Below, in pieces: positions 7,692 through 31,539 of a stretch of 64,000 nucleotides of DNA. The notes under the pieces were generated by a model. It was not told the DNA's origin and did not search any database. It saw nothing but the letters and a program-made list of their open reading frames with translations. Both the position numbers and the translations under genes were made by a program. Position 1 is the first letter of the stretch; every line of letters begins with the position of its first letter. Origin of the DNA: an uncultured Gemmatimonadales bacterium (GTDB taxonomy: Bacteria > Gemmatimonadota > Gemmatimonadetes > Gemmatimonadales > GWC2-71-9); assembly GCA_963798915.1 (NCBI GenBank), contig CAWCVB010000005.1:281291-345290 (forward strand), written 5' to 3'.

Positions 7692-8743
7692 GACCTTCCC
7701 TGCGTGCGCTGGTCCTTCTCGCACTGGCTGCCTGCGGCTCGGCCGACACCGGTGACGAGGCCGCGCAGACCGGCGCCGCACTGGTGCCTGTTCACTTTGC
7801 CGTGGTGGTGCGCGACTCCATCAGCGAAACGCTGCTGTTCACCGGACGGCTCTCCGCCCGCCCCGGCGGGGCAGTGGAGCTCACCGCGCCTGCGGCCGGG
7901 GTGGTGCGCCGGGTCTCAGCGCAGATCGGCGACCGAGTCGGGCGGGGCGCGGTGGTGGCTGTCATCGACGTCCCGGAGCTCAGTGCCGATGCCGCGCAGA
8001 AGTCCGCCGCCGCATCGTTGGCGGCACGCGAATCAGCGCGGCAGGAGCAGCTGCTCGCGGATGGCATCACCTCGGCCCGCCAGGCCGAAGAAGCAGTGGC
8101 GGCGAAGCGGCAGGCCGCCGCCGCGGCGCAAGCCGCCAGCGCACTTCTCGCGCGTACCCGGCTCGTGAGCCCGCTGGCGGGCCGAATCCAGAGCGTGAAT
8201 GTGCAGGTGGGCGCGCGGGTCGAGGCGGGCGCACCCATGGCCCGGGTGGTGAACGTGGACACGCTGGACCTTACGCTGGCGATTCCCGCCAATGCGTTGT
8301 GGCGGCTCCGGCCGAAGATGGTCGCCGACATCAGCGAAGAAGGAGCTACGACGACGGTCGAGGGCTTTGTTGCCGGGATTGCGCCCGGGGTGGATTCGCT
8401 CACGGGAACCGGTACCGCCGTGATCCGGATCCCCAATCCGGATGGCGCGTTGCACCCGGGCGCTGCCGCCACCGCACGGCTCCGGCTTGGCTTGCGGCGG
8501 GATGTCCTGATTGTTCCCGATTCGGCGCTGGTGCTGGCGGGCGACAGCAGCGCCGTCTTCGTCGTCGGCGCCGATTCCGTCGCGCACCAGCGCGTGGTGC
8601 GGCCCGGTGTCCGATCCGGGGGTCGCGTGGAAGTCGAGGGCAACCTCAAGCCTGGTGACCGGGTGGTGACCGCAGGCGCCTTTGGCCTGGAAGACGGCAT
8701 GCGCGTTGGGGCGGCCCGTGACTCGACCGATTCCACGCAGTGA
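7688..8743 (+). CDS. RND periplasmic adaptor (MFP) lipoprotein
   Basis: Lipobox LAAC; lipoyl-like halves (APAAGVV, SPLAGRI); GDRVVTAG. Confidence 0.92.
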   Translation: MRPSLRALVLLALAACGSADTGDEAAQTGAALVPVHFAVVVRDSISETLLFTGRLSARPGGAVELTAPAAGVVRRVSAQIGDRVGRGAVVAVIDVPELSADAAQKSAAASLAARESARQEQLLADGITSARQAEEAVAAKRQAAAAAQAASALLARTRLVSPLAGRIQSVNVQVGARVEAGAPMARVVNVDTLDLTLAIPANALWRLRPKMVADISEEGATTTVEGFVAGIAPGVDSLTGTGTAVIRIPNPDGALHPGAAATARLRLGLRRDVLIVPDSALVLAGDSSAVFVVGADSVAHQRVVRPGVRSGGRVEVEGNLKPGDRVVTAGAFGLEDGMRVGAARDSTDSTQ

Positions 8744-13414: not shown

Positions 13415-14224
13415 ATGATGCATATATCCTATTCACGACTCACCCTGGGACTTGTCGCCTCAGCGACCCTGGCGGCCTGCGCCGGCAACCCCTCGCCTGA
13501 AGACACGGCGGCCGCCGATACCACCGCTCCCAATGCCGGCGTCATGGCCGCTCCGTCCCCGGATACGACCAGGCGCGATACCACGATCATCACGCGCGAC
13601 ACCAGTCAGGCCATGCCTGCCGACTCCGCCATGGTGCCCCCAACAGATACGACCATGATGCCACCGGCGCGTGATACATCGGCCATGGTGTCGCCCACCG
13701 ACACAGCGGCAATGCCGCCACTCCAGGACACCACCGCCATGCCGGCGGACACCAGCATGGCCATGGCGGCCAGCGGTGCTGCCGTGACGGCCAAGATGGA
13801 AGGTGCCGCCGGGCGCGATCTGGGCACCCTCACGCTGACCGAGTCAGGGGGCGGCATTGCGGTATCCGGACAGCTCGTCGGCCTCCCTCCGGGAGAACAT
13901 GGATTCCATGTCCACGCCGTCGGCAAGTGCGAAGGTCCGTCCTTCGAATCCGCCGGAGCGCACTGGAATCCGACCAACAAGGCGCACGGCACCGATAACC
14001 CGGCCGGTCCCCACCTGGGCGACCTGCAGAACTTGACTGTGGGAGACGATAGCTCGGTGACTGTGCACGCCACCACGCCGAGTGGCACCCTGCATGGCGA
14101 AAACCCCCTGCTGGATGGCGATGGAGCAGCGATCGTGATTCACGCTGCGGCGGACGACTACCAGAGCAATCCCGCCGGAAACTCCGGCAAGCGGATCGCC
14201 TGCGGCGTGGTGCAGGGGAGCTGA
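13415..14224 (+). CDS. sodC: Cu/Zn superoxide dismutase lipoprotein with long repetitive linker
   Basis: Lipobox LAAC; HGFHVH, AGAHWNP, HG...PHLGDL, VIHA, GNSGKRIACGV. Confidence 0.92.
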   Translation: MMHISYSRLTLGLVASATLAACAGNPSPEDTAAADTTAPNAGVMAAPSPDTTRRDTTIITRDTSQAMPADSAMVPPTDTTMMPPARDTSAMVSPTDTAAMPPLQDTTAMPADTSMAMAASGAAVTAKMEGAAGRDLGTLTLTESGGGIAVSGQLVGLPPGEHGFHVHAVGKCEGPSFESAGAHWNPTNKAHGTDNPAGPHLGDLQNLTVGDDSSVTVHATTPSGTLHGENPLLDGDGAAIVIHAAADDYQSNPAGNSGKRIACGVVQGS

Positions 14225-14332
14225 ATCCGCTCTGCCAAGGGGCGCTCCGTCGGGTCTCCGGTGGCGCCTGCGGATCCGGTTTGGGCAGGACGACAGGGAC
14301 CAGATTGAATCTGATATGAGGGAGGTCATCCC

Positions 14333-14995
14333 ATGTTGCTGGATTATTGCCATCACAAGACCCAGGCAGCCTTCGCCGTCATGGCGGCACTGATCGCCGT
14401 CACTGGCTGCTCGAATAATCGGCAGGATGCCGCCGCCAGGGCGAGCGATAGCGTCAGCATGGCGGCACCGGCGGCCGATAGCACGACCGGCATGGCCGGC
14501 GTGCAGCTCAATGACGCCAAGATCGCCGACATTGCCGTCACCGCCAATTCGCTTGACAGCGCCGCTGGCGCGCTCGCGCTGAAGCAGGCCCAGAGCAAAG
14601 CTGTCAAGGACTTTGCCCAGACCATGATCCACGATCACTCGGCGGCGAACCGGAAGGCCGAGCAGCTGGCGACCGAGCTCAACCTGTCGCCGGAAGGCAA
14701 CAAAGTCAGCGATCAGCTCAAGGACGAGGCCGACAACGCAACCTCCGATCTCAAGGACCTGAAGGGCGCGGCGTTCGACCGGGCCTACATGGATCACGAA
14801 ATTGCCGTGCATACGTCGGTGCTGGCGTCGCTGGACAATACGCTCATTCCCGGCGCCGGGAACGCCGAGCTGAAGCAGTTCCTGAGTTCCATCCGGCCGA
14901 CCATCGCCGGGCACCTTGCCCGCGCCAAGTCAGTGAGGAAGGATCTCGGCGGGACCGACTCGCCCAGCGCTCGGGATTCAGCCCGGATGCCATAG
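14333..14995 (+). CDS. DUF4142-domain lipoprotein
   Basis: Lipobox VTGC; VKDFAQTMIHDH, GAAFDRAYMDHEIAVH, IAGHLARA. Confidence 0.85.
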   Translation: MLLDYCHHKTQAAFAVMAALIAVTGCSNNRQDAAARASDSVSMAAPAADSTTGMAGVQLNDAKIADIAVTANSLDSAAGALALKQAQSKAVKDFAQTMIHDHSAANRKAEQLATELNLSPEGNKVSDQLKDEADNATSDLKDLKGAAFDRAYMDHEIAVHTSVLASLDNTLIPGAGNAELKQFLSSIRPTIAGHLARAKSVRKDLGGTDSPSARDSARMP

Positions 14996-15055
14996 GCTTG
15001 TACCGGAGCCGCGCAGCGCCGAAGCGGTGCTGCGCGGTCGTGGCAACTGGTCGGC

Positions 15056-15084
15056 TTGACATTACATGTTATAACAGCTATCTT
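15056..15084 (+). promoter_or_regulatory. Sigma70 promoter of marR with operator palindrome TGTTATAACA (15067-15076) in the spacer
   Basis: TTGACA (15056) - 17 bp - TATCTT (15079); ATG follows 6 nt after the -10. Confidence 0.75.
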
Positions 15085-15090
15085 CTGGGC

Positions 15091-15552
15091 ATGTCGCTTC
15101 AGGCCGAGATCAAGCAGACCCGCCCATTTCCCAGCCGCGCCGCCGAGGCGTTGTTGAGCATTCTGCGGACCGCGGCGGTGCTGGAACACGATCTCACCGA
15201 TGCGCTCCGGCCATTTGGCATCACGCCGACCCAGCACAACGTGCTCCGGATCCTGAGGGGTGCGGGTGCCGATGGACTGTGCGGCCGGGAGATTGCGGAA
15301 CGGCTGGTGGCCAGCGTGCCCGACGTCCCAAGACTGCTGGAACGGCTGGATGCCATGAAGCTCATCGTGCGGGAGCGGGACCCGGAGGACCGACGTCACG
15401 TGACCGCGCGCGTTACGCCCGCGGGCCTGAAGCTGCTCACGCTGGTGACACCGGAACTCGAGGCGGTGGAGCGGCGGCGGGCCGGCCGGCTGAGCGACCG
15501 GACCCTGCGGGCACTGATCAGCAGCCTGGAGGCGATCCGCGAAGGCGGGTGA
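15091..15552 (+). CDS. MarR-family transcriptional regulator
   Basis: GITPTQHNVLRILRG, PDVPRLLERL, RERDPEDRR. Confidence 0.92.
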   Translation: MSLQAEIKQTRPFPSRAAEALLSILRTAAVLEHDLTDALRPFGITPTQHNVLRILRGAGADGLCGREIAERLVASVPDVPRLLERLDAMKLIVRERDPEDRRHVTARVTPAGLKLLTLVTPELEAVERRRAGRLSDRTLRALISSLEAIREGG

Positions 15553-15574
15553 CCGATTTTCCTGAAGTGATACG

Positions 15575-15584
15575 TGTTATAACA
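15575..15584. promoter_or_regulatory. Second TGTTATAACA operator, upstream of doxX
   Basis: Exact copy of the 10-bp palindrome in the marR promoter. Confidence 0.72.
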
Positions 15585-15619
15585 GTGACAGTGATAACGT
15601 TTAACAGGGGCGGTGTGAT

Positions 15620-16177
15620 ATGTCGGTTTCTATTGCGGTAAGCGCGGGGTCACTGAGTGTCGGCCTCCTGCTGGCGCGTCTGGTGTTCGGGGGCCTGATG
15701 ACAGCCCATGGTTCCCAGAAGCTGCTGGGCTGGTTCGGCGGGCACGGTCTCGCGGGCACCGGCGCCTTCTTCGAGTCCCTGGGTTTTCGTCCCGGCCGGT
15801 TGTTTGCCACCGCGGCCGCCGTCTCCGAGATGGCCAGCGGTATCCTCCTGCTGCTCGGCCTGCTTGGGCCGGTCGGCCCCGCACTGATGGTTTCGGTGAT
15901 GATCGTCGCCGCCGGCAGCGTGCACTGGAAGAACGGGCTCTTTGCGATGTCGAATGGCATCGAGGTCCCATTGCTGTACGGCACCGGCGCGGTCGCGCTG
16001 GGACTGACCGGTCCGGGTGGGCTCTCAATTGACGCGCTGCTGGGACTGGGAGCGATGTGGACGCCGGTCGTCAGCGGCGGCGTGCTCGCGCTGGGCATCA
16101 TTGGTGGCTTTGCAAATCTGGCACTACGACACCGGCTCTCCCTCACGCCAGGTCGCCACGAGCCGCAGACCACGTGA
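15620..16177 (+). CDS. DoxX-family membrane protein
   Basis: RLVFGGLMTAHGSQKLLGWFGG, VHWKNG, GIE, GPGGLSID. Confidence 0.92.
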   Translation: MSVSIAVSAGSLSVGLLLARLVFGGLMTAHGSQKLLGWFGGHGLAGTGAFFESLGFRPGRLFATAAAVSEMASGILLLLGLLGPVGPALMVSVMIVAAGSVHWKNGLFAMSNGIEVPLLYGTGAVALGLTGPGGLSIDALLGLGAMWTPVVSGGVLALGIIGGFANLALRHRLSLTPGRHEPQTT

Positions 16178-16182
16178 GCCTG

Positions 16183-16230
16183 GGTGATCGCCGCTTCCTC
16201 TTGTGCGGAGACAGGAAGCGGCGACCCACC
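16183..16230. terminator. Stem-loop downstream of doxX (possible terminator)
   Basis: tcgccgcttcct ... aggaagcggcga inverted repeat; no U tract. Confidence 0.4.
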
Positions 16231-16447
16231 GGCGAAGGTGAGTGCATGAAAGCTACTGACTGACGGAGACCGCTGGATCGGGGGCAGGCGGCCCACTTGC
16301 GACTGCCTGCCCCCACGCACGTCCTGCCGCGTGACGGGATCGCCCTGGCCGGGCACGACGGCTCGTGCACGTCGGGAGTCGTGGCTATCATGCCAAGGTT
16401 GAAGACGCGCGTGCACATTTGACGTGATCCGGAAGGCGGAGATGAGC

Positions 16448-17812
16448 ATGGCGATCGTATCGGTGAACCCGGCCACAGGTGACGCCATTCAGGCCTATGA
16501 CGAGATGACTGCGGAGCAAGTCGCATCCGCGGTCGAGGATGCCAACGACGCCTGGGGCGACTGGCGCTCCGCGAGTTTCGGGGATCGAGCGGCGGTGATG
16601 CAGGGAACCGCCAGGATGCTCAGGGATCGCAAGGATGCCTTGGCTCGCCTCATGGCGCTGGAAATGGGCAAGCCACTGGCGCAAGGCGTCGCCGAGGCCG
16701 AGAAGTGCGCCTGGGTGTGCGAGTACTACGCGGAGCACGGCGAGGCCCAACTTGCGCCCGACCGGGTAGGCACCGAGGCCGCCAGGTCCTACGTTGCCTT
16801 CCAGCCGCTGGGCGTGGTGCTTGCCATCATGCCATGGAACTTTCCACTCTGGCAGGTCTACCGGTTTGCCGCCCCGGCGCTCATGGCCGGTAACGCCGGC
16901 GTGCTCAAGCACGCGTCGAACGTGCCGGGCTGCGCGCTCGCCATCGAGGAGATCTTCGTACGTGCCGGTGCGCCGCCGGGATTGTTCCGGACGCTGCTCA
17001 TCGGCAGCGATCAGGTGAAGAGCGTGATCGAACATCCACTGGTTCGCGCCGTGACGCTTACCGGGAGCACACCGGCGGGCCGGGCCGTCGCCAGCCAGGC
17101 GGGTGCAGTGCTCAAGAAGACAGTGCTCGAGCTTGGCGGCTCAGATCCCTACCTCGTGCTCGAGGATGCGGACCTTGACCTCGCGGCGGAGACCTGTGCT
17201 CGGTCCCGCCTCATCAACAGCGGCCAGAGCTGCATCGCGGCCAAGCGGTTCATTGTGGTCGGTGCGGTGCTGAAGGCCTTCACCGAGCGGTTGGTCTCGC
17301 GCATGGGCGCCCGGCGGGTAGGGAATCCTCTGGACGATGGAGTGGATGTCGGACCGCAGGCGCGCGAAGACCTGCGTGATGCGCTGCATCGGCAGGTGAC
17401 GTCCTCCGTCGAGCGTGGCGCCACGCTGGCGTTGGGCGGGCGCGTTCCCGACCAGCCCGGCGCGTTCTATCCGCCGACGGTGCTCACGGGGGTGACTCCC
17501 GGCATGCCGGCCTTCGATGAGGAGACGTTCGGTCCGGTGGCAGCCATCATCCCGGCGCAGGACGAGGCGGATGCAATCCGCCTGGCCAATCATTCGCACT
17601 TCGGGCTGGGGGCCGCGGTCTTCACCCGCGACCCGGACCGGGGCGAACGGATTGCGCTCAGGCTGGAAGCGGGCGCCACCTTTGTGAATGCACTGGTCGC
17701 CTCCGATCCGCGCCTCCCCTTTGGGGGGATCAAGCAGTCCGGCTATGGCCGCGAGTTGGGCAGCTATGGCATCCGCGAGTTTGTCAACGTGAAGACAGTC
17801 CAGGTGCATTGA
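16448..17812 (+). CDS. NAD(P)-dependent aldehyde dehydrogenase (succinate-semialdehyde dehydrogenase-like)
   Basis: IMPWNFP, LKHAS, TLTGS, LELGGSDP, NSGQSC, EETFGPV, PFGGIKQSG. Confidence 0.92.
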   Translation: MAIVSVNPATGDAIQAYDEMTAEQVASAVEDANDAWGDWRSASFGDRAAVMQGTARMLRDRKDALARLMALEMGKPLAQGVAEAEKCAWVCEYYAEHGEAQLAPDRVGTEAARSYVAFQPLGVVLAIMPWNFPLWQVYRFAAPALMAGNAGVLKHASNVPGCALAIEEIFVRAGAPPGLFRTLLIGSDQVKSVIEHPLVRAVTLTGSTPAGRAVASQAGAVLKKTVLELGGSDPYLVLEDADLDLAAETCARSRLINSGQSCIAAKRFIVVGAVLKAFTERLVSRMGARRVGNPLDDGVDVGPQAREDLRDALHRQVTSSVERGATLALGGRVPDQPGAFYPPTVLTGVTPGMPAFDEETFGPVAAIIPAQDEADAIRLANHSHFGLGAAVFTRDPDRGERIALRLEAGATFVNALVASDPRLPFGGIKQSGYGRELGSYGIREFVNVKTVQVH

Positions 17813-17884
17813 CTCCACGGTGCGGCCGGCTCACCGCGTCGGCGGCGCGCCAGTCCGCAGGCGCTGCGGTGGCAGATTGGCAGG

Positions 17885-18391
17885 TCAGCCGCCCTTGCGT
17901 CTCACCTGCCAATGACCTGTGCTGGGTGCCGGCTGCCGTTCACCGTAGGTCGTAAAGGTGCCTTCGATCCGACCGCCGCTCAGGCGTCCCGTGAATACCG
18001 TTTCGAGCATGCAGTCGCAATCAGGCGCCTGGTAGGGCAGAAGTTCGCCCCGGACCTCATCACCCTGCAGTCGGACAAAACGGATCGTCAATACCGACGG
18101 CATGGGCGCCGCTTGCTGCGGCTGAATCTTGTCCTGCCCGGCAGGCCGCAAGGGCCGGTCGGAGTTGGACGGAATCATGAGCACATCACCAGTCGCCGTG
18201 TCGTGCCCCGCCTCGAGTGTAAAGACGATGCTGCCACTGCGGCCCGTCTGTGCGCTGCTGTAACTGCCTTCCCACCGTCCGGCGAGGGCGCCGAGGTCGG
18301 ACCCGGCTGCCTCCACCGGAACGGGGGATGGATTTGCCGCACAACCGAGCAACACGCTGGCCAGGAGTGCAAACGAAAGGTGACGCGACAT
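17885..18391 (-). CDS. Hypothetical lipoprotein (beta-rich, CDC motif)
   Basis: MSRHLSFALLASVLLGC lipobox; LAGRWEGSY; RBS upstream. Confidence 0.8.
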   Translation of the reverse strand: MSRHLSFALLASVLLGCAANPSPVPVEAAGSDLGALAGRWEGSYSSAQTGRSGSIVFTLEAGHDTATGDVLMIPSNSDRPLRPAGQDKIQPQQAAPMPSVLTIRFVRLQGDEVRGELLPYQAPDCDCMLETVFTGRLSGGRIEGTFTTYGERQPAPSTGHWQVRRKGG

Positions 18392-18438
18392 GGCGGCTCC
18401 CTCCACGAGGTCAGCGACAGCCACTCGGCTGCGCCTGC

Positions 18439-18879
18439 TTACTTGATGGCAATCCGGCTGCGCGGCGATGGTTGCGCCTTGACGAGCCGGATTGTCAGCA
18501 TGCCGTCGCTGTAGCGGGCGTCTACCGTCTCCGGAGCGACGGGCTCCGGCAGCTGAACGCTCCGCACGAACCGGCCTTCTTCCCGCTCGCGCCAGAAGAA
18601 TTCCTCGTTTTCCTCCTGGCGGGCCAGCTCGCGGCGTCCCACCACCGTCAGCATCTGGCCATCCAGAGCCACATCAAGGTCATCCTTGGCCACGCCCGGC
18701 GCCTCGATGCGAACCACGAACTCCTTCTCGGTTTCGGAGAAGTCGAGCTTCGGTGACCACATCAGGCCGCCGTCCCGCGTGGGTGCCGGAAACGGGGTCA
18801 TGCGGAAGAAGCGGTCGAAGAGGCGCTCGAAATCATCCTTGAGCGCGACGGCAGTCTGGTTGGCCTGGGCGAGTTTCAT
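18439..18879 (-). CDS. Hsp20/alpha-crystallin small heat-shock protein
   Basis: WSPKLDFSETEKEFVVRIEAPG, ERxxGRFVRSVQLP, ARYSDGMLTI; AGGAGG RBS. Confidence 0.93.
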   Translation of the reverse strand: MKLAQANQTAVALKDDFERLFDRFFRMTPFPAPTRDGGLMWSPKLDFSETEKEFVVRIEAPGVAKDDLDVALDGQMLTVVGRRELARQEENEEFFWREREEGRFVRSVQLPEPVAPETVDARYSDGMLTIRLVKAQPSPRSRIAIK

Positions 18880-19090
18880 GGCGGTCCTCCTTGCACTGAC
18901 GTGCATGAGAAAGGTGCACTCCAATGGTACCTGGGTGGCCATGAAGAGCGGCTGAAGACTTCGCGAAATTTTTCCAGGCCATCGTCGGAAAGCAGGAAGG
19001 TGACGATCCTCACAGTCAGCGGTGGGACGGTAGCCTACCCTGACAGGGCAAGGGCCAAACGGTTGGCCCGAAGGAGGAGGTCGAACAACA

Positions 19091-19564
19091 ATGAAGAGGC
19101 ATTCACATGAAGTGCGCTCGCTGCTCGCGGGGCTGAGCCTTGGTGCGATCGCGATGTATATCCTGGATCCATTGCGGGGCCCGGCCAGGCGTGCACGCGT
19201 GCGGGAGCGTGCCGGCAGCACGCTGCGGAGTGGGCGGCGCGAGTTTCGGCGGCGCGCCGAGGACCTGCGCAACCGCGCGAAGGGCGCGCTGGCGGAAGTG
19301 CGTGGGCGCCTGTCGGAGCATGGCGTGACCGACGAGCAGCTGGTCGCCCGGGTCCGCGCCGAACTCGGTCACCACGTGAGCCATGGCGGACAACTCGAGG
19401 TGAGTGCCCACGATGGAATCGTCACGTTGGGTGGACACGTGTCGGGCCGAGAGGTGCCCGATGTGCTGGCCATGGCGCGAAGGGTTCGCGGAGTCGAACA
19501 GGTTCGGGACGACCTGCAAGTTGCGGACTGGGACGTGGGTGGAAACGTGAAGATCGGCGGTTAG
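19091..19564 (+). CDS. BON-domain protein with N-terminal TM and coiled coil
   Basis: MYILDP.RG..RR, TDEQLVARVRAELG, DGIVTLGG, GVEQVRDDL; AGGAGG RBS. Confidence 0.88.
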   Translation: MKRHSHEVRSLLAGLSLGAIAMYILDPLRGPARRARVRERAGSTLRSGRREFRRRAEDLRNRAKGALAEVRGRLSEHGVTDEQLVARVRAELGHHVSHGGQLEVSAHDGIVTLGGHVSGREVPDVLAMARRVRGVEQVRDDLQVADWDVGGNVKIGG

Positions 19565-19688: not shown

Positions 19689-20132
19689 TCAGGCGTGCCG
19701 GGCGGAGACCTCGGGCACAGGCGGGCCGTATGTTGCGCCCACCACGGCGCCGTAAACCAGGTGGCCAATCATGCTTCCCATGACGAGCATCCACTGGTTG
19801 GGGGCGTTCGCCGTGAAGAGCCCCATGCCCATCATGGGCATGACCGCGATCTGCGCCAGCAGGAATGGAAAGAGCCCATAGAGGGCGCCACGCATCCACG
19901 GTGCGCCGGGCAGCCGGGAGGCAAAGAGCGCTGCATAAATGATGGCGAACATGGTACCGATCATGAAATGCGCGAGCCACCCGACGGCGGTTGGCACGTT
20001 CATGAATCCGCTCAGCATGGCAGGGATATCCATCTTGATCCCCATAAGACCTGCCATCGTGGTCATCAGGGTCATCGCCGCAGTTCCGATGACACCCGCA
20101 ACAATGGCGCGGGAAAGATTAAACGACTTCAT
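19689..20132 (-). CDS. Met-rich four-TM membrane protein (DUF2938/DUF6789-like)
   Basis: AGVIGTAAMT, GWLAHFMIG, MPMMGMG, GHLVYG; AGGAG RBS. Confidence 0.82.
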   Translation of the reverse strand: MKSFNLSRAIVAGVIGTAAMTLMTTMAGLMGIKMDIPAMLSGFMNVPTAVGWLAHFMIGTMFAIIYAALFASRLPGAPWMRGALYGLFPFLLAQIAVMPMMGMGLFTANAPNQWMLVMGSMIGHLVYGAVVGATYGPPVPEVSARHA

Positions 20133-20275
20133 GAATGTGCTCCTGGCAGGTGGTGTGTGGTGCCTGAAAAGCTGGCGGCGCCGGACGTGTCCGCATCGCG
20201 CCAGTGGGCGACGTGGGGTGAACCGGGCAATGCGGCCACGTTTACTCGCCCAGGGGTAGATGGCGCTCGCCTCCT

Positions 20276-20302
20276 AACCGGATGGCGGATGGATCAGTTC
20301 CC
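20276..20302 (-). promoter_or_regulatory. ECF promoter copy 1 (GGGAACT-N12-ATCCGGTT), facing the Met-rich membrane gene
   Basis: Forward aaccggat-ggcggatggatc-agttccc equals GGAAC-N18-GTT on the minus strand. Confidence 0.8.
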
Positions 20303-20397
20303 GTGACGGTAGCATCGCTCGTGCTCATTCTTGAGTTCGAGAAGGTCTGTCGTACCGTACTATTCGCTCGCAAGCGCATCGCGGTTCGGCGGGGTGA

Positions 20398-20649
20398 TCA
20401 TGCGCCCTCCCCGGCGGCGCCTTCCTGGGCCAGCAGCCGGGCGAACAACTGATGCCGCAGGGCAGGCGAGGCCTGCTCCCGCTCGCGCAGACGTCGCGTG
20501 TACTCGAAGTAGCGCGCTGGATTGTACCTGGGATAACACCGGCTGCAGATGGCAAGGTGCGTCTGCACCGACTTTGAGGTGGCAGCCGTCCAGTGAACAC
20601 GGGCTCGCCAGGCCTCGTCACACGTCACTCCACCAATGCGCATCATCAT
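20398..20649 (-). CDS. Zinc-binding anti-sigma factor (ZAS, zf-HC2; RsrA/RshA-like), probably with indel errors
   Basis: TCDEA...HLAICSRC (HxxxCxxC), SPALRHQL; start overlaps the sigma stop. Confidence 0.8.
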   Translation of the reverse strand: MMMRIGGVTCDEAWRARVHWTAATSKSVQTHLAICSRCYPRYNPARYFEYTRRLREREQASPALRHQLFARLLAQEGAAGEGA

Positions 20650-21350
20650 GGCTGTGTATCCTCGTGCACGTAACCGGATCGGACCGCAAAGTCCCGCAGC
20701 TGATCCTGCAACAGTCGCCGGGCCCGGAAGAGGCGGCTCTTGACCGTACCAATCGGAATGGTGAGTACTTCGGCAATCTCCTCGTAGCTCAGATCGCCCA
20801 CGTCGCTCAGTACGAGCACCTCGCGAAAATCGTCGGAAAGACCGTCGATTGCCTGGACTACCTCGTCGTCGATGAGATCGTCGAAGTCGTCCGGAGACGC
20901 GCCGGGCGCCGCGTTCGGAAGCGCGCTCGCGGCGGAGAGGTCTTCGACACGAGCGTCGAGATCCGATGCCGGCCGTTCCCGCTGGTTGCGAATCCGCTCC
21001 CGCTCGTGCAGATACGTGTTGCGGCAGATCGTGAAGAGCCACGACTTGCAATTGCTTCCCCGCTGAAACGTGTGCCAGAAGCGATGCGCCCGGAGAAAGG
21101 TGTCCTGGGTCAGGTCATCGGCCGCGTCCTGGTTCCCCTGGGCCAACCGGAGCGAGAAATGGTGGACGGCGTTGAGCCACGGAAGCGCCTCCTCGGCAAA
21201 GCCTTCCGCTGCAAGAGCTGGCTCGTCTCCTAGCGGCGCGATTGGCGTTTCGCGGGGACGTCCCGGCGCCACGTCCAGATGGCGCGGCCGCTTGGCCAGC
21301 ACCGCCCATGCTGTCTGGACGCGATCCCACAGTGCGTCTCTGCCACCCAT
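20646..21350 (-). CDS. ECF RNA polymerase sigma factor (SigR/SigH-like)
   Basis: ADDLTQDTFLRA, GSNCKSWLFTICRN, LSYEEIAEVLTIPIGTVKSRLFRAR. Start uncertain (21350 or 21401). Confidence 0.93.
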   Translation of the reverse strand: MGGRDALWDRVQTAWAVLAKRPRHLDVAPGRPRETPIAPLGDEPALAAEGFAEEALPWLNAVHHFSLRLAQGNQDAADDLTQDTFLRAHRFWHTFQRGSNCKSWLFTICRNTYLHERERIRNQRERPASDLDARVEDLSAASALPNAAPGASPDDFDDLIDDEVVQAIDGLSDDFREVLVLSDVGDLSYEEIAEVLTIPIGTVKSRLFRARRLLQDQLRDFAVRSGYVHEDTQP

Positions 21351-21410
21351 GTGCGCTGACCCTTTCGCATCGTGTCCCGCGTGGCCGCATGATTGAGGCA
21401 TTCCCGCCCG

Positions 21411-21437
21411 AACCGGATTCCGGTCTCGCAAGTTCCC
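21411..21437 (-). promoter_or_regulatory. ECF promoter copy 2, facing sigma/anti-sigma (autoregulation)
   Basis: Minus strand GGGAACT-tgcgagaccgga-ATCCGGTT. Confidence 0.8.
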
Positions 21438-21448
21438 AGACTCAACCA

Positions 21449-21475
21449 GGGAACTCGACCTCCGCACATCCGGTT
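21449..21475 (+). promoter_or_regulatory. ECF promoter copy 3, facing the secreted protein and cupredoxin
   Basis: GGGAACT-cgacctccgcac-ATCCGGTT. Confidence 0.8.
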
Positions 21476-21509
21476 GGCGTCATACACTTTTCCTCTTTGT
21501 GGAGATCGC

Positions 21510-22448
21510 ATGCGACGCCAGTGGATGGTACCCTCATTGCTCTGTGTCCTGCTTCCCTCTCTCCTGGCCGGGCAAGGGATGGCTCCGGCCGGTTCGATTC
21601 CCTATCAGGGCTATCTGAAGTCCCACAGCGACGTGTCCCGGCCGCTTGGCCTGCTGGGCGGACCAGTCGATGTGACCGTCAAGCAATCTTCCGGCGGCGT
21701 ATTCGTGGCACTGCCCGATCGCCGCGCGCTGGACGAGGCGGTGTTCGGGACGCCGGCCGCCCCCCGCGCATTCGCGGGTACGCCGGTCATGACCGGTCTG
21801 CCAGTGGCCATGCGGGACTCGGCCGACGCTCGCTTCACCACGGCGAAACCACTGACGCCGTTTGGTGACAAGAACATGGTGCTGGGCAACGGGACGCTTA
21901 CCCTCACCTTGCATGATGCAACGGCGACCGACGCGGCCAAGTCCGAAGACCGGGTCCAATTCGACGCCACCTGGAAGGACAAGGACGGCAACACCTATGA
22001 AGTGCGTTGTTGCCAGATGCTCGCGACTCACGGTCTGGAGTATCCCACGTTTGGTGGAGTGGCGACCAACACGCTGCTGCATGGGTCCACCCGAATCGGT
22101 ACACCGCTGATGCCAACGGAATTCACCTACGCGGCCTTCTGGGGGATGGGCGCGGTGCTGAAGAATGGCAAAGTGGTGGACCAGCCCCGGCTCATTCACG
22201 GGATGTTGACCGAGTACGTGCGCACCGAAGGATATGCGCTGGCTGCGGATAGCGCGGTCGGGCCTACCCGACTGCATTTCCACCTGATGGTGCCACCGAT
22301 GATGCCCGACATGGCGACGGGGAAATTCGCGATGAGCCCGGTGAAGACCGGTTTCTCGCTCCCCAACGGCATGGAGCTCCCGTTCTGGCACGTGATGTTC
22401 GAAAATCTTGCGGTGACGGGCCAGCGCGCCGGCACCAGCGGGCGGTGA
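21510..22448 (+). CDS. Uncharacterised secreted protein rich in His/Met with vicinal Cys-Cys; putative metalloprotein
   Basis: Signal peptide; EVRCCQML, THG, LHGSTRIGTPLMP, IHGM, HFHLM, WHVMF; GGAG RBS. Confidence 0.85.
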   Translation: MRRQWMVPSLLCVLLPSLLAGQGMAPAGSIPYQGYLKSHSDVSRPLGLLGGPVDVTVKQSSGGVFVALPDRRALDEAVFGTPAAPRAFAGTPVMTGLPVAMRDSADARFTTAKPLTPFGDKNMVLGNGTLTLTLHDATATDAAKSEDRVQFDATWKDKDGNTYEVRCCQMLATHGLEYPTFGGVATNTLLHGSTRIGTPLMPTEFTYAAFWGMGAVLKNGKVVDQPRLIHGMLTEYVRTEGYALAADSAVGPTRLHFHLMVPPMMPDMATGKFAMSPVKTGFSLPNGMELPFWHVMFENLAVTGQRAGTSGR

Positions 22449-22451
22449 CCG

Positions 22452-22837
22452 ATGCGGCTGCTTGCTCCGACTCTCGCGGGTCTGGTGCTTGCCGTCGGTG
22501 GCGTGCGGGATCAGTTGCGCTAGCGACGGGACGACGGTGGTATGGGCCGATACGGCAGGGTGGAACTGACCAACACCCTGACATACACGCCAGACACCGT
22601 GCGAATCGTTGCCGGTGGGACGGTGATGTGGAAGAACGGATCGCTGCTCGTTCACACGGTCACCGATGATTCGGGGAAGGCGACCGTGCCGGGTTCGGCC
22701 GGGTTGCCGTCCGGCGCCAGGCCTTCGATTCAGGGAACCTTGAGCCGGGAGGCACTCGACACATAAGATAGGGCGTTATTACTACTCTGATGCATGAAAG
22801 AGCAGGATGCGGGGCGTGTCATCGTGAGGCTGGATGA
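22452..22837 (+). pseudogene. Plastocyanin/cupredoxin-family protein, multiply frameshifted (sequencing error or decay)
   Basis: MRLLAPTLAGL signal; LTYTPDTVRI.AGGTVMWKN...HTVT. Pieces FDSGNLEPGG, GRYYY, MHE, GM, GRVIVR lie in shifting frames. Confidence 0.75.
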
Positions 22838-25333: not shown

Positions 25334-25657
25334 TCATCGTGACGTCAGCAGGCGCTGCTGCGCCTTCAATTCCCGCTTCATGCGCCCGCACATGAGGTCG
25401 CAAAGCCGGAAGATGTCCTTGTCCGCCAGCGTGTAATACGCATGGAGGCCATCCTTCCGCCGAGTGACGAACCCGAGCCGAAGAAGGAGTTGCAGGTGCT
25501 TGGACACATTGGCCTGGGTCAGGCCGGTCTCCTGCACCAGGCTGGAGACACTTGCCTCGCCCGTCCGCAGGCACTGGAGCAGCTGCAGACGGGCTGGTTC
25601 GGCCAGTGCCTTGAATCGCTCAGCCACGCCGGCCATCAATTCGGGGGACAGCTTCAT
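25334..25657 (-). CDS. ArsR/SmtB-family regulator with Cys in alpha2 and CxxxC in alpha5
   Basis: FKALAEPARLQLLQCL, QANVSKHL, RRKDG, RLCDLMC; GGAGG RBS. Confidence 0.92.
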   Translation of the reverse strand: MKLSPELMAGVAERFKALAEPARLQLLQCLRTGEASVSSLVQETGLTQANVSKHLQLLLRLGFVTRRKDGLHAYYTLADKDIFRLCDLMCGRMKRELKAQQRLLTSR

Positions 25658-25847
25658 GAGTGTCGCTCGCCTCCTGGGGACTATGCCTCCGGTGCCCGAC
25701 CAGGCGCACGGATCGCCGCGCATGATTCGGGTGGCGGAGTCTGAACGGAGCTTCATCCAGTCCTCATTCCCGGTGCAGTTCCACACCATCATTATCACCT
25801 GAGCGGACTTCGGGCCACAGCTGTCGCCGATCGGACCCGCCGTGGCA

Positions 25848-25877
25848 TTGTAAAGATAACTATATGGTTGTATAGTT
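25848..25877 (+). promoter_or_regulatory. Sigma70 promoter overlapped by inverted repeat AACTATA-N6-TATAGTT (probable ArsR operator)
   Basis: TTGTAA (25848) - 17 bp - TATAGT (25871); inverted repeat at 25858-25877. Confidence 0.72.
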
Positions 25878-25920
25878 GTGCAAGGACCCCGGATGGGCCG
25901 GGGTCGACTGGACCGGGTGA

Positions 25921-27288
25921 ATGACCGTGTTGGTGATGCGATTCGCGACTATCTCCTTGCTGGCCGTCGCCGCCTGGTCCCGGGCGCTGCCGGCCCAGGA
26001 ACTCTCCCTTGCGGAGGCACTCCGCCGGGCCGAGCACGGCGCCTACGCCAACCGGATCGCCGGTGCGCAGGCCCGCGCTGAGGCGGCGCGCGCCGCCGAG
26101 ACGCTGCGAGGCGTGCTCCCGAGTGTTCGGCTCGAGGGCGGCTACATCCGCACTACCGAACCCCTGTCGGCGTTCGGCTTCCTGCTGCGGCAGCGCGCGG
26201 TCACCGCGGACGCGTTCGAGCCAGCCCGGCTCAATGACCCGGCGGCCATCGGCAACCTGGGCTCCGCGCTGGTGGTCGAGCAGCCGATCTTCAATGCTGA
26301 TGCATTGCTCGGGCGCCGCGCGGCGGCTCGCGGGAGCGCGGCGGCGCGCGCGTCGGAAGAATGGACCCGCAGCGGGACACGCCTCGACGTCGTGCGCGCC
26401 TACTATGGCGCCGTGCTCGCCGCGGAACAGATCGGCACACTGGACAGCGCGGCGCGTGCGGCTGCGGCCCACGCCCGGGCCGCGGAGTCGCTGCACCGCA
26501 ATGGCCTCGTCACCAGATCGGACGCGCTGCTCGCGTCGGTGCGGGCGGGCGAGGTCGATCTTCAGCTCCTCGCCGCCCGGCGGGCGGCCGCGCTTTCGCA
26601 TGCTCGGCTCGCCGTGTTGCTCGGCGCTCCGGCCGATACCGGCTTTGTGCTCCCGGCCCAGCTCCCCGATACCGCGGCGATCGCCCGACTGGCCGAAGCG
26701 GGTGACTCCGGCGTCCTGACCGATCGCGCGGACGTGCGTGCAGCGGATCTGTCGGTTGCCGCCGCGGCCGCCGACCAGCAGCGCGCCACCGCACTCTTCC
26801 TGCCCCGGGTGAATTCATTCGGCCGGCTCGAATGGAACTCAAGTGGCTCGATCTTTGGCGGAACTGAAGCGTGGACCGCCGGTGTGATCCTGACCTGGTC
26901 GCCGTTCAGCGGCGGCGCCGAGCTGGGCGAGCGCCGGGCTGCCACGGCCCGCCGGGGAGCCGCGGAGGCGGCGGCGGAAGCGGCGCTGGCTCAGGGGCAG
27001 CTGGAGCGTCAGGAGGCAGCGAACGCGCTGGCGGTCGCGCAGGCGCGCATGGCCATCACCGGCCGTGCGGTGGGCCAGAGCAGTGAGGCTCATCGCATTG
27101 TTGCACGGAGGTATGAAGCCGGCCTGGTGAGCGTGGTGGAGCTCTTCGGAGCGGCTGCAGAAGAGACCGCTGTGCGCCTTGGCTTCGCCGAGGCGCGCTA
27201 TCAGGCAATCGTGGCCCTTGCCGAGGGCCGGCGCGCCTCCGGTCGCAGCCTTGAGGTACTGACCAGTCTCGACTCAATGGAGCGGTAG
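25921..27288 (+). CDS. TolC-family outer membrane protein
   Basis: Signal peptide; LSLAEAL, LPSVRL, VVRAYY, RYEAGLVSVVEL. Confidence 0.9.
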   Translation: MTVLVMRFATISLLAVAAWSRALPAQELSLAEALRRAEHGAYANRIAGAQARAEAARAAETLRGVLPSVRLEGGYIRTTEPLSAFGFLLRQRAVTADAFEPARLNDPAAIGNLGSALVVEQPIFNADALLGRRAAARGSAAARASEEWTRSGTRLDVVRAYYGAVLAAEQIGTLDSAARAAAAHARAAESLHRNGLVTRSDALLASVRAGEVDLQLLAARRAAALSHARLAVLLGAPADTGFVLPAQLPDTAAIARLAEAGDSGVLTDRADVRAADLSVAAAAADQQRATALFLPRVNSFGRLEWNSSGSIFGGTEAWTAGVILTWSPFSGGAELGERRAATARRGAAEAAAEAALAQGQLERQEAANALAVAQARMAITGRAVGQSSEAHRIVARRYEAGLVSVVELFGAAAEETAVRLGFAEARYQAIVALAEGRRASGRSLEVLTSLDSMER

Positions 27289-27289
27289 G

Positions 27290-28342
27290 ATGCGGAGGAA
27301 GACCAAAGGCGCCCCCTGGCAGTTGGTGCTCGCGAGCATGACGACAGTCCTGCTGGTGGCCTGCGGCAAGGCGCCGGCGCCGGAGCGGGCTGAGCTCGGG
27401 GCGACGCTGCCGGCCGGCCGCATGGTCGAAGTGCGGGACACCACGATCGCCGCCATCCTCGATGCACCCGGCACCGCGGAGCCGATGCAGCGGGCAACCA
27501 TGAGCACCAAGCTCATGGGGACGGTGATGGCTGTGCTGGTGCGTGAGGGTGAGATGGTGAGCACTGGCCAGTTGCTCGCCCGTATCGATGCCCGGGATCT
27601 CCAGGCGAAGCGGGCCCAGGTCCAGGCGGGCCTGGCCGAGGCCGAAGCGGTGCAGCGCGATGCGGCCACGCAGGCGCAACGCTTTCGGGCACTCTACGCC
27701 GACAGCGCCGCGACGCAGGCGCAGCTCGATGCGGTGGAAACCGGACTCGCGCGCGCGGATGCGGGAGTCCGGAGCGCCCATGCCGCCGCCGCCGAGCTGG
27801 ACGCCACGCGAGCGTATGCGGAGGTACGGGCTCCGTTCCGTGGAATCGTGACCAAACGGTTCATGGATCCCGGAGCCTTTGCGGCCCCGGGTGCGCCCAT
27901 CGTGACGGTGGAGGACGGATCGCGCCTGCGGATCTCGGTGATGGTGGCGCCATCCAGTGCGACCGCGCTGCGCCGAGGAATGCGGCTGGCCGGGACGGTG
28001 GAGCGAATGCCAGTGGAAGCCATAGTTGAGGGAGTGGCGCCCTCATCGGCGGGCGGTGTCTACACCGTGAATGCGATCGTCGAGAACCGGCGCGGGGTGT
28101 ATCCCATCGGGGGTGCCGCAACGCTCAGCGTGCCGCAGGGCAGCCGGTCCGGCCTTCTGGTTCCGGTCGATGCCATCGTGCGCGAAGGCGACCTCACCGG
28201 CGTACGGGTGCAGTCGGGCGCTGGCACTGAACTCCGCTGGGTTCGGCTGGGCAGGCCCACCGGTGAGATGGTGGAGGCGCTCTCCGGATTGCGCAATGGC
28301 GACCGGGTCTTCGTGCCGGCGTCACTCGAAGGCAGGCACTGA
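27290..28342 (+). CDS. RND periplasmic adaptor (MFP) lipoprotein
   Basis: LVAC lipobox; VREGEMV, VRAPFRGIV, SGLRNGDRV. Confidence 0.92.
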   Translation: MRRKTKGAPWQLVLASMTTVLLVACGKAPAPERAELGATLPAGRMVEVRDTTIAAILDAPGTAEPMQRATMSTKLMGTVMAVLVREGEMVSTGQLLARIDARDLQAKRAQVQAGLAEAEAVQRDAATQAQRFRALYADSAATQAQLDAVETGLARADAGVRSAHAAAAELDATRAYAEVRAPFRGIVTKRFMDPGAFAAPGAPIVTVEDGSRLRISVMVAPSSATALRRGMRLAGTVERMPVEAIVEGVAPSSAGGVYTVNAIVENRRGVYPIGGAATLSVPQGSRSGLLVPVDAIVREGDLTGVRVQSGAGTELRWVRLGRPTGEMVEALSGLRNGDRVFVPASLEGRH

Positions 28343-28344
28343 GC

Positions 28345-31539
<3,195 letters not shown>

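Follow-up and report, generated by a model that had tools for sequence, protein, structure and literature searches.

A putative accessory SigR/SigH-like sigma factor cassette with an exported beta-barrel–cupredoxin pair in a Gemmatimonadales genome

Introduction

Among sigma factors of extracytoplasmic function (ECF), the systems SigR/RsrA of Streptomyces coelicolor and SigH/RshA of Mycobacterium tuberculosis, both of the group ECF12, combine a sigma factor with a zinc anti-sigma factor encoded at the +1 position behind it, promoters of the form GGAAC-17 bp-GTT, and an autoregulatory site. In the accessible parts of the sources, the SigH promoter consensus is given as GGAAYR-N17-18-GTT (PMC7826278), and a 17-bp spacer is described as the optimum for SigH, whose residues F72, T76, N77, and W81 read the -10 T (10.1101/534826). 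The accessible part of the former source does not list Gemmatimonadota among the ECF12 taxa (PMC7826278). The sigma factor with its zinc anti-sigma factor, the promoter geometry, and the autoregulatory site recur in a window of 64,000 nucleotides from an uncultured Gemmatimonadales bacterium (contig CAWCVB010000005.1, positions 281,291 to 345,290), in which three copies of the motif GGGAACT-N12-ATCCGGTT stand before the genes of an ECF sigma factor and its zinc anti-sigma factor, of a DUF6789 membrane protein, and of an exported beta-barrel protein followed by a cupredoxin. Sequence comparison places this locus among the numerous accessory cassettes of Gemmatimonadales that pair a SigR/SigH-like sigma factor with a zinc anti-sigma factor. 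Its features are as follows.

19689..20132, minus strand: four-helix membrane protein, DUF6789 (also DUF2938); Pfam score 46.1 bits against a cut-off of 27.1
20276..20302, minus strand: motif copy 1, 143 nt upstream of the DUF6789 start codon
20398..20649, minus strand: soluble zinc anti-sigma factor with an N-terminal Cys and HxxxCxxC, at the +1 position behind the sigma factor gene
20646..21350, minus strand: ECF sigma factor, SigH/SigR-like, of an accessory clade; Pfam sigma2 and sigma4
21411..21437, minus strand: motif copy 2, in an autoregulatory position ahead of the sigma factor and anti-sigma factor genes
21449..21475, plus strand: motif copy 3, in a back-to-back arrangement with copy 2 and 34 nt upstream of the barrel gene
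21510..22448, plus strand: exported beta-barrel protein of an undescribed family, 312 residues; signal peptide judged by eye
22452..22837, plus strand: plastocyanin/amicyanin-type cupredoxin; 3' end approximate, gene frameshifted in the assembly

Promoter Motif at the Window Locus

All three copies are free of mismatches, and each is intergenic and faces a gene. The initial annotation, made from the letters of the window, had described them as an identical-core triplet at these positions, with unrelated spacers and the promoter geometry of SigR and SigH, and each part of this description held: the copies lie exactly there, their spacers are entirely unlike each other, and every copy reads GGAAC-T, 17 bp, GTT, with a T as the sixth letter where the consensus has a purine. 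A shuffle control (100 shuffles) gave 0.05 matches at two or fewer mismatches. In the whole genome assembly (17 contigs, 3.31 Mb, 84.8% complete), the 12-nt spacer yielded these three copies as the sole perfect matches, no one-mismatch match, and a single two-mismatch match, located within a reading frame at 8404, while none of nine other spacers (8–11 and 13–17) yielded a perfect match. The three copies are very probably promoters of the local sigma factor.

An independent public sequencing run, X1, which is near-identical to the window where the two overlap, agrees with it letter for letter over 21415-21565, a stretch comprising the whole of plus-strand copy 3 and most of minus-strand copy 2; the anti-sigma factor gene and the 3' end of the cupredoxin gene lie outside its cover. 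Runs X2 and X3 contributed short unrelated pieces and nothing else, and a sigma-70 promoter scan and a terminator scan returned 0 and 0 hits.

Sigma Factor and Zinc Anti-Sigma Factor

The sigma factor contains the sigma2 and sigma4 domains only, and its closest PDB match is SigH (E 1.5e-27), which bears out its initial description as SigR/SigH-like. Its best NCBIfam model, TIGR02947 (SigH_actino), is an actinobacterial one and scores 124.6 bits against a cut-off of 251.55. The SigH residues F72, T76, N77, and W81 align to F, S, N, and W in the window protein. An N-terminal extension of about 40 residues, also found in the relative from genome G264, is reminiscent of the long SigR isoform in the accessible part of its description (PMC7826278). 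In a tree of 47 rows, the window sigma factor falls inside a 15-row group (99/94), separate from the core copies, although this tree is midpoint-rooted, its labels were set from gene neighborhoods, and four rows labeled accessory lie on the core side.

The anti-sigma factor, with its N-terminal Cys and HxxxCxxC, likewise stands as the zinc anti-sigma factor first proposed, the match to RsrA having been made with its nearest intact relative, which matches both zf-HC2 and RsrA. The window protein gave no match to zf-HC2 in Pfam because of deletions. Its gene is 18 nt shorter than that of the nearest relative, with five gaps that keep the frame, and a conserved W-x-[FY]-L-D-x-E stretch has been lost.

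Related Sites and -10 Elements

Among 401 genomes of the order, perfect copies of the exact 15 letters occur in this genome only; one-mismatch copies occur in 56 others, and a reversed control matches 23. No module gene lies near the exact-pattern matches at 149 other loci, of which 29 came from genomes of the order and 120 from metagenome stretches (40 with short flanks). The exact motif was consequently rejected as a family marker, its perfect copies being private to one genome and 0 of the 149 loci having a module gene. Of the initial proposal to follow the motif through related genomes, the geometry is what survives: it recurs in related loci, but the exact letters are not shared.

A relaxed form, [GTC]GGAAC[CT]-N18-TT, has 54 intergenic, gene-facing sites in 27 loci, or 51 sites in 23 of the 26 other loci once the window is set aside, a count that is partly circular because the pattern was picked after some loci had been seen and for which a spacer control serves as the safeguard: over the remaining spacer lengths between 14 and 22, this control found 1, 1, 1, 1, 8, 2, 2, and 3 sites, the 8 belonging to spacer +1. 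Back-to-back pairs of sites appear repeatedly among the related loci, and a matrix built from eight sites, all of them from relatives, places the three window copies within the top 6 of the genome. L005, a locus from another family of the same order, has four such promoters, ahead of DUF6789, an RclA/MerA-like operon, the barrel, and the sigma factor. A site also stands directly before the barrel in L001, L002, and L004, which with the window makes five Gemmatimonadota loci. Between 17001 and 19689 of the window, no site was found.

The four letters before the TT are more alike within loci than between them (2.29 against 1.54 of 4 letters shared, 0 of 5000 shuffles, window excluded), in a comparison whose kin are not independent. 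The -10 variants of the sister cassettes include GGTT, GATT, CCTT, CGTT, and others, and GGTT is common to the window and its nearest sigma factor relative. The likeness within loci and the shared GGTT together suggest that the -10 elements are cassette-specific, although kinship or local copying would yield the same result.

Regulon Size and a Core Sigma Factor

The relaxed motif has 8 intergenic sites genome-wide at the right spacing, against 6–12 at ten other spacings. Since it shows no excess elsewhere in the genome, nothing points to distant targets, and a large genome-wide regulon of the kind known from studied ECF12 members was not seen in this 84.8% complete genome. The motif distribution thus supports a putative local ECF regulon.

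The genome encodes a second, core pair of sigma factor and zinc anti-sigma factor (47% identical; G000:C10:78216-79033), which has its own GGGAACT...CGGTT site at spacer +1. Of 250 genomes of the family, 189 encode a sigma factor of this kind; among 27 core-type copies of relatives, 7 have a site at the spacing of the window. The core sigma factor may cross-talk at the same window promoters. The cassette had at first been called self-contained; this is right as far as a local regulon goes and is made unsure by a core pair with a near-identical promoter. In the core pair, about seven copies of one 8-bp unit, arranged head to tail, separate the site from the start codon (G000:C10:78074-79033). 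Relaxed sites at G000:C5:134415, C2:184082, and C4:47654 precede genes, their number being at background level. These genes, which by eye we take to encode a flavin thioredoxin/ferredoxin reductase, an AhpD protein, and a primary-type sigma factor, are possible candidate targets of the core sigma factor.

The Exported Beta-Barrel and Its Cupredoxin

The barrel protein matched no model in Pfam or NCBIfam, no PDB sequence below E 0.05, and no Foldseek target below E 0.001. Its predicted model is a beta-barrel with a predicted local distance difference test (pLDDT) score of 77.5, and the best fold match (Z 6.8, root-mean-square deviation 4.1, 119 aligned) reflects a generic barrel likeness that excludes no family. 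Near homologs number 476, and clustering at 50% identity gives 319 clusters. The residues H191, H230, M232, H258, and H294 are all five kept in 82 of 102 aligned rows, and the close subfamily has H-x-M pairs at 230/232, 258/260, and 294/296. A vicinal CC motif, found in 75 and 71 of 80 in the close subfamily, was rejected as a catalytic feature because only 5 of the 102 wider rows keep it. In the openly accessible literature searched, no description of the barrel or the cassette family was found.

The cupredoxin gene lies directly 3' of the barrel gene in 67 of the 73 loci with room for it. Two of four haloarchaeal plasmid loci that were opened also have the pair (Haloferax mediterranei and Halogeometricum); in Haloferax mediterranei it is HFX_RS18735/18740, an intact pair is also present in Salisaeta longa, and the accessible part of one study gives the Haloferax cupredoxin as uncharacterized (PMC9240420). 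Among 43 listed barrel representatives of at least 370 residues, 21 match cupredoxin families, 2 of these weakly; matches to cytochrome c came from 3, to DsbA-like proteins from 2, to a pyrroloquinoline quinone (PQQ) propeller from 1, and, weakly, to SodC from 1. An N-terminal C-H-M cupredoxin motif is present in 22 of 24 distant Gemmatimonadales homologs. This repeated pairing with a one-electron carrier, together with the fixed His and Met residues, makes a redox metalloenzyme somewhat the better guess for the barrel, which is probably an undescribed metallo-oxidoreductase. Close barrel homologs are scarce in the phylum, occurring in 4 of 400 genomes, and more distant ones occur in 35 more; the barrel was not found in four further genomes of the same genus (82–91% complete), in G557, or in G115. 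At L115:6584-8575, a close barrel homolog and a distant barrel paralog are arranged head to head.

In the cupredoxin family, whose PDB matches are plastocyanin and amicyanin, the type-1 ligands H, C, H, and M (His...Cys-x2-His-x4-Met) are invariant in 38 of 38 aligned relatives. The gene of the window is broken across three frames. It retains the first His, its Cys ligand is unreadable, and its 3' ligand loop, in a part outside the cover of X1, is corrupted. Run X1 has four extra single bases in this gene, although each rests on one contig at a depth of about 3 and was flagged as possibly in error. Putting N at these four positions gives one continuous frame that starts with the ATG at 22452 and extends to about 22753, and the loose end of X1, translated by hand, reads as the next conserved strand of the family. 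Since the extra bases restore the frame, the breaks are most likely assembly errors in a gene that is probably intact in nature. Frameshift-like splits were found in 3 of 50 and 1 of 37 other loci tested in the same genome.

The DUF6789 Membrane Protein

The Atlas agrees with Pfam in assigning the membrane protein to DUF6789. Its model has a pLDDT of 91.6, and fold searches gave no clear match, a result that excludes no family. H55 and H124 are invariant in 29 of 29 aligned relatives, unlike the Met richness, so that of the Met/His character first ascribed to the protein only the two His are conserved. It is a candidate heme- or metal-binding protein, and a role as an electron conduit is conceivable if doubtful. 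In a bis-His cytochrome b, two His face each other across a helix bundle; of these traits, the comparison with the DUF6789 protein saw the two invariant His and no clear fold match. Among 400 genomes of the order, 55 encode a relative of DUF6789; this tally includes the unpublished genome G157, and the 401-genome motif tally the unpublished G445, with no claim resting on either singly. A second DUF6789 gene of the same genome (G000:C2:350829-351266) lies behind another ECF-like gene and has no site. At L334:2701-5112, DUF6789 is in frame with a PAS/His-kinase/receiver protein, as a sensor fusion or through a missing stop.

Sister Cassettes and Gene Partners

Seventeen DUF6789 loci, picked mostly from the best scores, were widened, and a sigma factor with an anti-sigma factor was present in 10 and an anti-sigma factor only in 2 more. 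The cargo of these sister cassettes consists mostly of thioredoxins, DsbA-like proteins, TlpA/redoxin, CcdA, AhpD/CMD, BrxC, OsmC, DUF3179, and RclA/MerA-like reductases. In the vicinity are also mer genes, a metal-sensing repressor, and, beside the sister sigma factor of L329, a single CusCBA-like efflux system. Because this cargo is largely thiol-redox, oxidant stress fits better than copper resistance. The claim that the targets were not thioredoxins but copper proteins is true only at this locus; the sister cassettes carry thioredoxins, AhpD/CMD, and DsbA-like proteins.

All five genes have close relatives together in one of 80 barrel loci from many phyla, and one more locus has all five with a distant membrane protein; synteny of the five as a fixed unit was not borne out. 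L005 combines DUF6789, barrel and cupredoxin, sigma factor and zinc anti-sigma factor, and the RclA/MerA-like operon in a different gene order, so that the combination of the window recurs as one among many. The stable units are the barrel with its cupredoxin, and the sigma factor with the zinc anti-sigma factor and DUF6789.

Several observations concern cargo of the sister cassettes. AhpD-like and AhpC/TSA-like cargo genes at L333:6065-6598 and L332:4273-4902 have an in-frame TGA at CxxU or UxxC and are probable selenoprotein genes; the accessible part of one survey counts AhpD-like and DUF3179 proteins among selenoprotein families (PMC9312934). A small exported protein with no Pfam match is encoded in five cassettes (L330:8624-9007, L334:7823-8209, L335:6200-6595, L339:7532-7921, and L072:259-651), in three of them directly behind a site. 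At L338:2511 and L339:1712-4192, a fusion of radical S-adenosylmethionine protein and methyltransferase, then a phosphate-transporter-family gene, stand behind a site.

Proposed Mechanism and Alternative Readings

We judge it fairly probable that the locus is a SigR/RsrA-type accessory cassette that responds to thiol oxidants, equipped with a barrel–cupredoxin redox kit, and likely that its purpose concerns oxidants rather than copper. In the resting state, the zinc anti-sigma factor would hold the sigma factor, which would be released, as in SigR/RsrA, when the Cys ligands are oxidized or displaced; disulfide stress, hypohalous acids, and thiophilic metals are candidate triggers by analogy with RsrA. 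The freed sigma factor would then act at the three local promoters, raising its own operon (feedback), the DUF6789 gene, and the barrel–cupredoxin operon. The barrel would serve as a periplasmic metallo-oxidoreductase with a His4/Met site, its metal probably copper, with the type-1 cupredoxin as its one-electron partner, and the two-His membrane protein could tie them to the electron pool of the membrane. Copper would be a cofactor here and not the stress, and the substrate may, as a guess, lie in periplasmic oxidant removal or repair. More tentatively, the barrel could found an undescribed class of periplasmic copper enzymes, shared by bacteria and archaea, whose His4/Met site a dedicated cupredoxin or cytochrome c would feed; in Gemmatimonadales it would be an exchangeable part of a family of accessory oxidant-defense cassettes, their paralogous SigH-like sigma factors insulated by cassette-specific -10 elements.

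Several points weigh against the oxidant-response cassette. The relaxed-site count is partly circular, and eight of its loci come as pairs from four genomes. A site stands directly ahead of the barrel in only 4 of 9 Gemmatimonadota-type barrel loci. The nearest sigma factor relative (74% identical) controls other genes, and no barrel match was obtained in its genome; the fused Gemmatimonadales barrel subfamily seems, by eye, to have no equivalents of H258 and H294; and the anti-sigma factor may be truly decayed, sequence error being the alternative. Of the 80 barrel loci, 10 have some ECF sigma factor and 4 an ECF12-like pair, so the barrel–cupredoxin pair appears to be mostly under other control.

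The best-surviving alternative is copper defense, in which the barrel would buffer or chaperone Cu(I), the cupredoxin oxidize it, the Met-rich membrane protein move copper, and the anti-sigma thiols sense it. The H-x-M pairs and the cupredoxin partner suit this reading, as do the CusCBA-like efflux beside the L329 sigma factor and the mer genes and metal-sensing repressor near others. In motif scans of the 80 barrel loci, however, a P-type ATPase turned up in 1, a multicopper oxidase motif in 2, and SCO in none, while WCxxC was seen in 11; an AhpD/CMD cluster lies in 11 of the loci. With copper-resistance motifs this rare near the barrel, the copper detoxification proposed at first is weakened. 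The Cus-like operon of L329 has no promoter site, Met richness is not conserved in the membrane protein though the two His are, and barrel relatives fused to cytochrome c or to a PQQ propeller are more in keeping with an enzyme than with a chaperone; copper defense is rather improbable.

Only slightly less probable is that the barrel–cupredoxin pair works in metabolism or respiration as a periplasmic oxidoreductase, plays no part in stress, and came under redox-sigma control incidentally in some Gemmatimonadota. That 76 of the 80 barrel loci have no ECF12-like sigma factor, that haloarchaeal neighbors are varied, and that a PQQ-dehydrogenase fusion exists all fit such an enzyme, but redox-stress genes lie near the barrel repeatedly, outside Gemmatimonadota as well, and the site ahead of the barrel recurs in the five Gemmatimonadota loci. 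It is unlikelier again that the core sigma factor is the main reader of the promoters, with the local pair redundant or decaying. This accords with the near-identical site of the core pair (spacer +1), with the spacing shared by 7 of 27 relatives' core sigma factors, with the real-looking anti-sigma deletions, and with the sites of L001, L002, and L004, which have no local sigma factor; yet the intact local sigma factor gene is preceded by a site, -10 variants resemble each other more within loci than between them, the nearest sigma factor relative has the same GGTT, and the breaks in the neighboring cupredoxin gene are not present in X1. That the copies are leftovers of local duplication or chance, as the chance-like exact matches elsewhere (0 of 149 loci with a module gene) might suggest, is hardly credible given their wholly different spacers, their intergenic and gene-facing placement, and the same geometry in 23 of 26 related loci.

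Genomic Surroundings

The cassette has a guanine-plus-cytosine fraction of 0.61-0.64, against mostly 0.64-0.70 nearby, a difference too slight to show transfer. Window positions 13418-19564 hold stress-type genes for a Cu/Zn superoxide dismutase and DUF4142, DoxX, and BON proteins and, by eye, MarR-, aldehyde dehydrogenase-, and Hsp20-like genes. At 25334-31539, an ArsR regulator is divergent from an operon of outer-membrane efflux, HlyD, and AcrB-family genes.

Comparison With Known Systems

Periplasmic enzymes with a dedicated cupredoxin include methylamine dehydrogenase with amicyanin and NirK with pseudoazurin. The barrel is alike in its adjacent or fused type-1 copper carrier, whereas its own sequence matches nothing in PDB, Pfam, or NCBIfam. 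Copper-sensing ECF sigma factors of the CorE type have a Cys-rich C-terminal domain and no anti-sigma factor; the window sigma factor, in contrast, carries no Cys-rich tail at its end, and an anti-sigma factor is encoded behind it. The ECF16 systems SigF/NrsF and SigF/OsrA, which answer heavy metal or oxidant, resemble the locus in being small, local envelope regulons, but their six-helix DUF1109 anti-sigma factor, GTAACC-CGTA promoter, and DUF692/DUF2282 cargo were not seen at the window locus. Within ECF12, SigR and SigH are core regulators, whereas the window cassette is accessory and patchy, with exported targets; it has three putative local promoters where about 41 are predicted for SigR/SigH in the accessible part of the source (PMC7776599), and the -10 variants differ among its sister cassettes.

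What is new at this locus is that an orphan barrel–cupredoxin pair and DUF6789 are tied to a putative thiol-oxidant signal, a first physiological handle on them. With the pair also present in the cultured Haloferax mediterranei, its metal content, electron transfer, and phenotype are directly testable, and a new class of copper redox enzyme, if true, would interest bioinorganic chemists. The sister sigma factors with matched -10 variants offer a natural test series for promoter specificity. According to the accessible part of Todor et al. (2020, PMC7776599), 47.8% of ECF sigma factors are predicted to control three or fewer promoters, nearby and patchily spread; small local regulons thus making up nearly half of predicted ECFs, the wiring of the window is ordinary and like that of local ECF regulators generally, while its cargo and the repeated cassette family are specific to it. 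A specialist would find nothing surprising in the regulon itself; what is unusual is the exported barrel.

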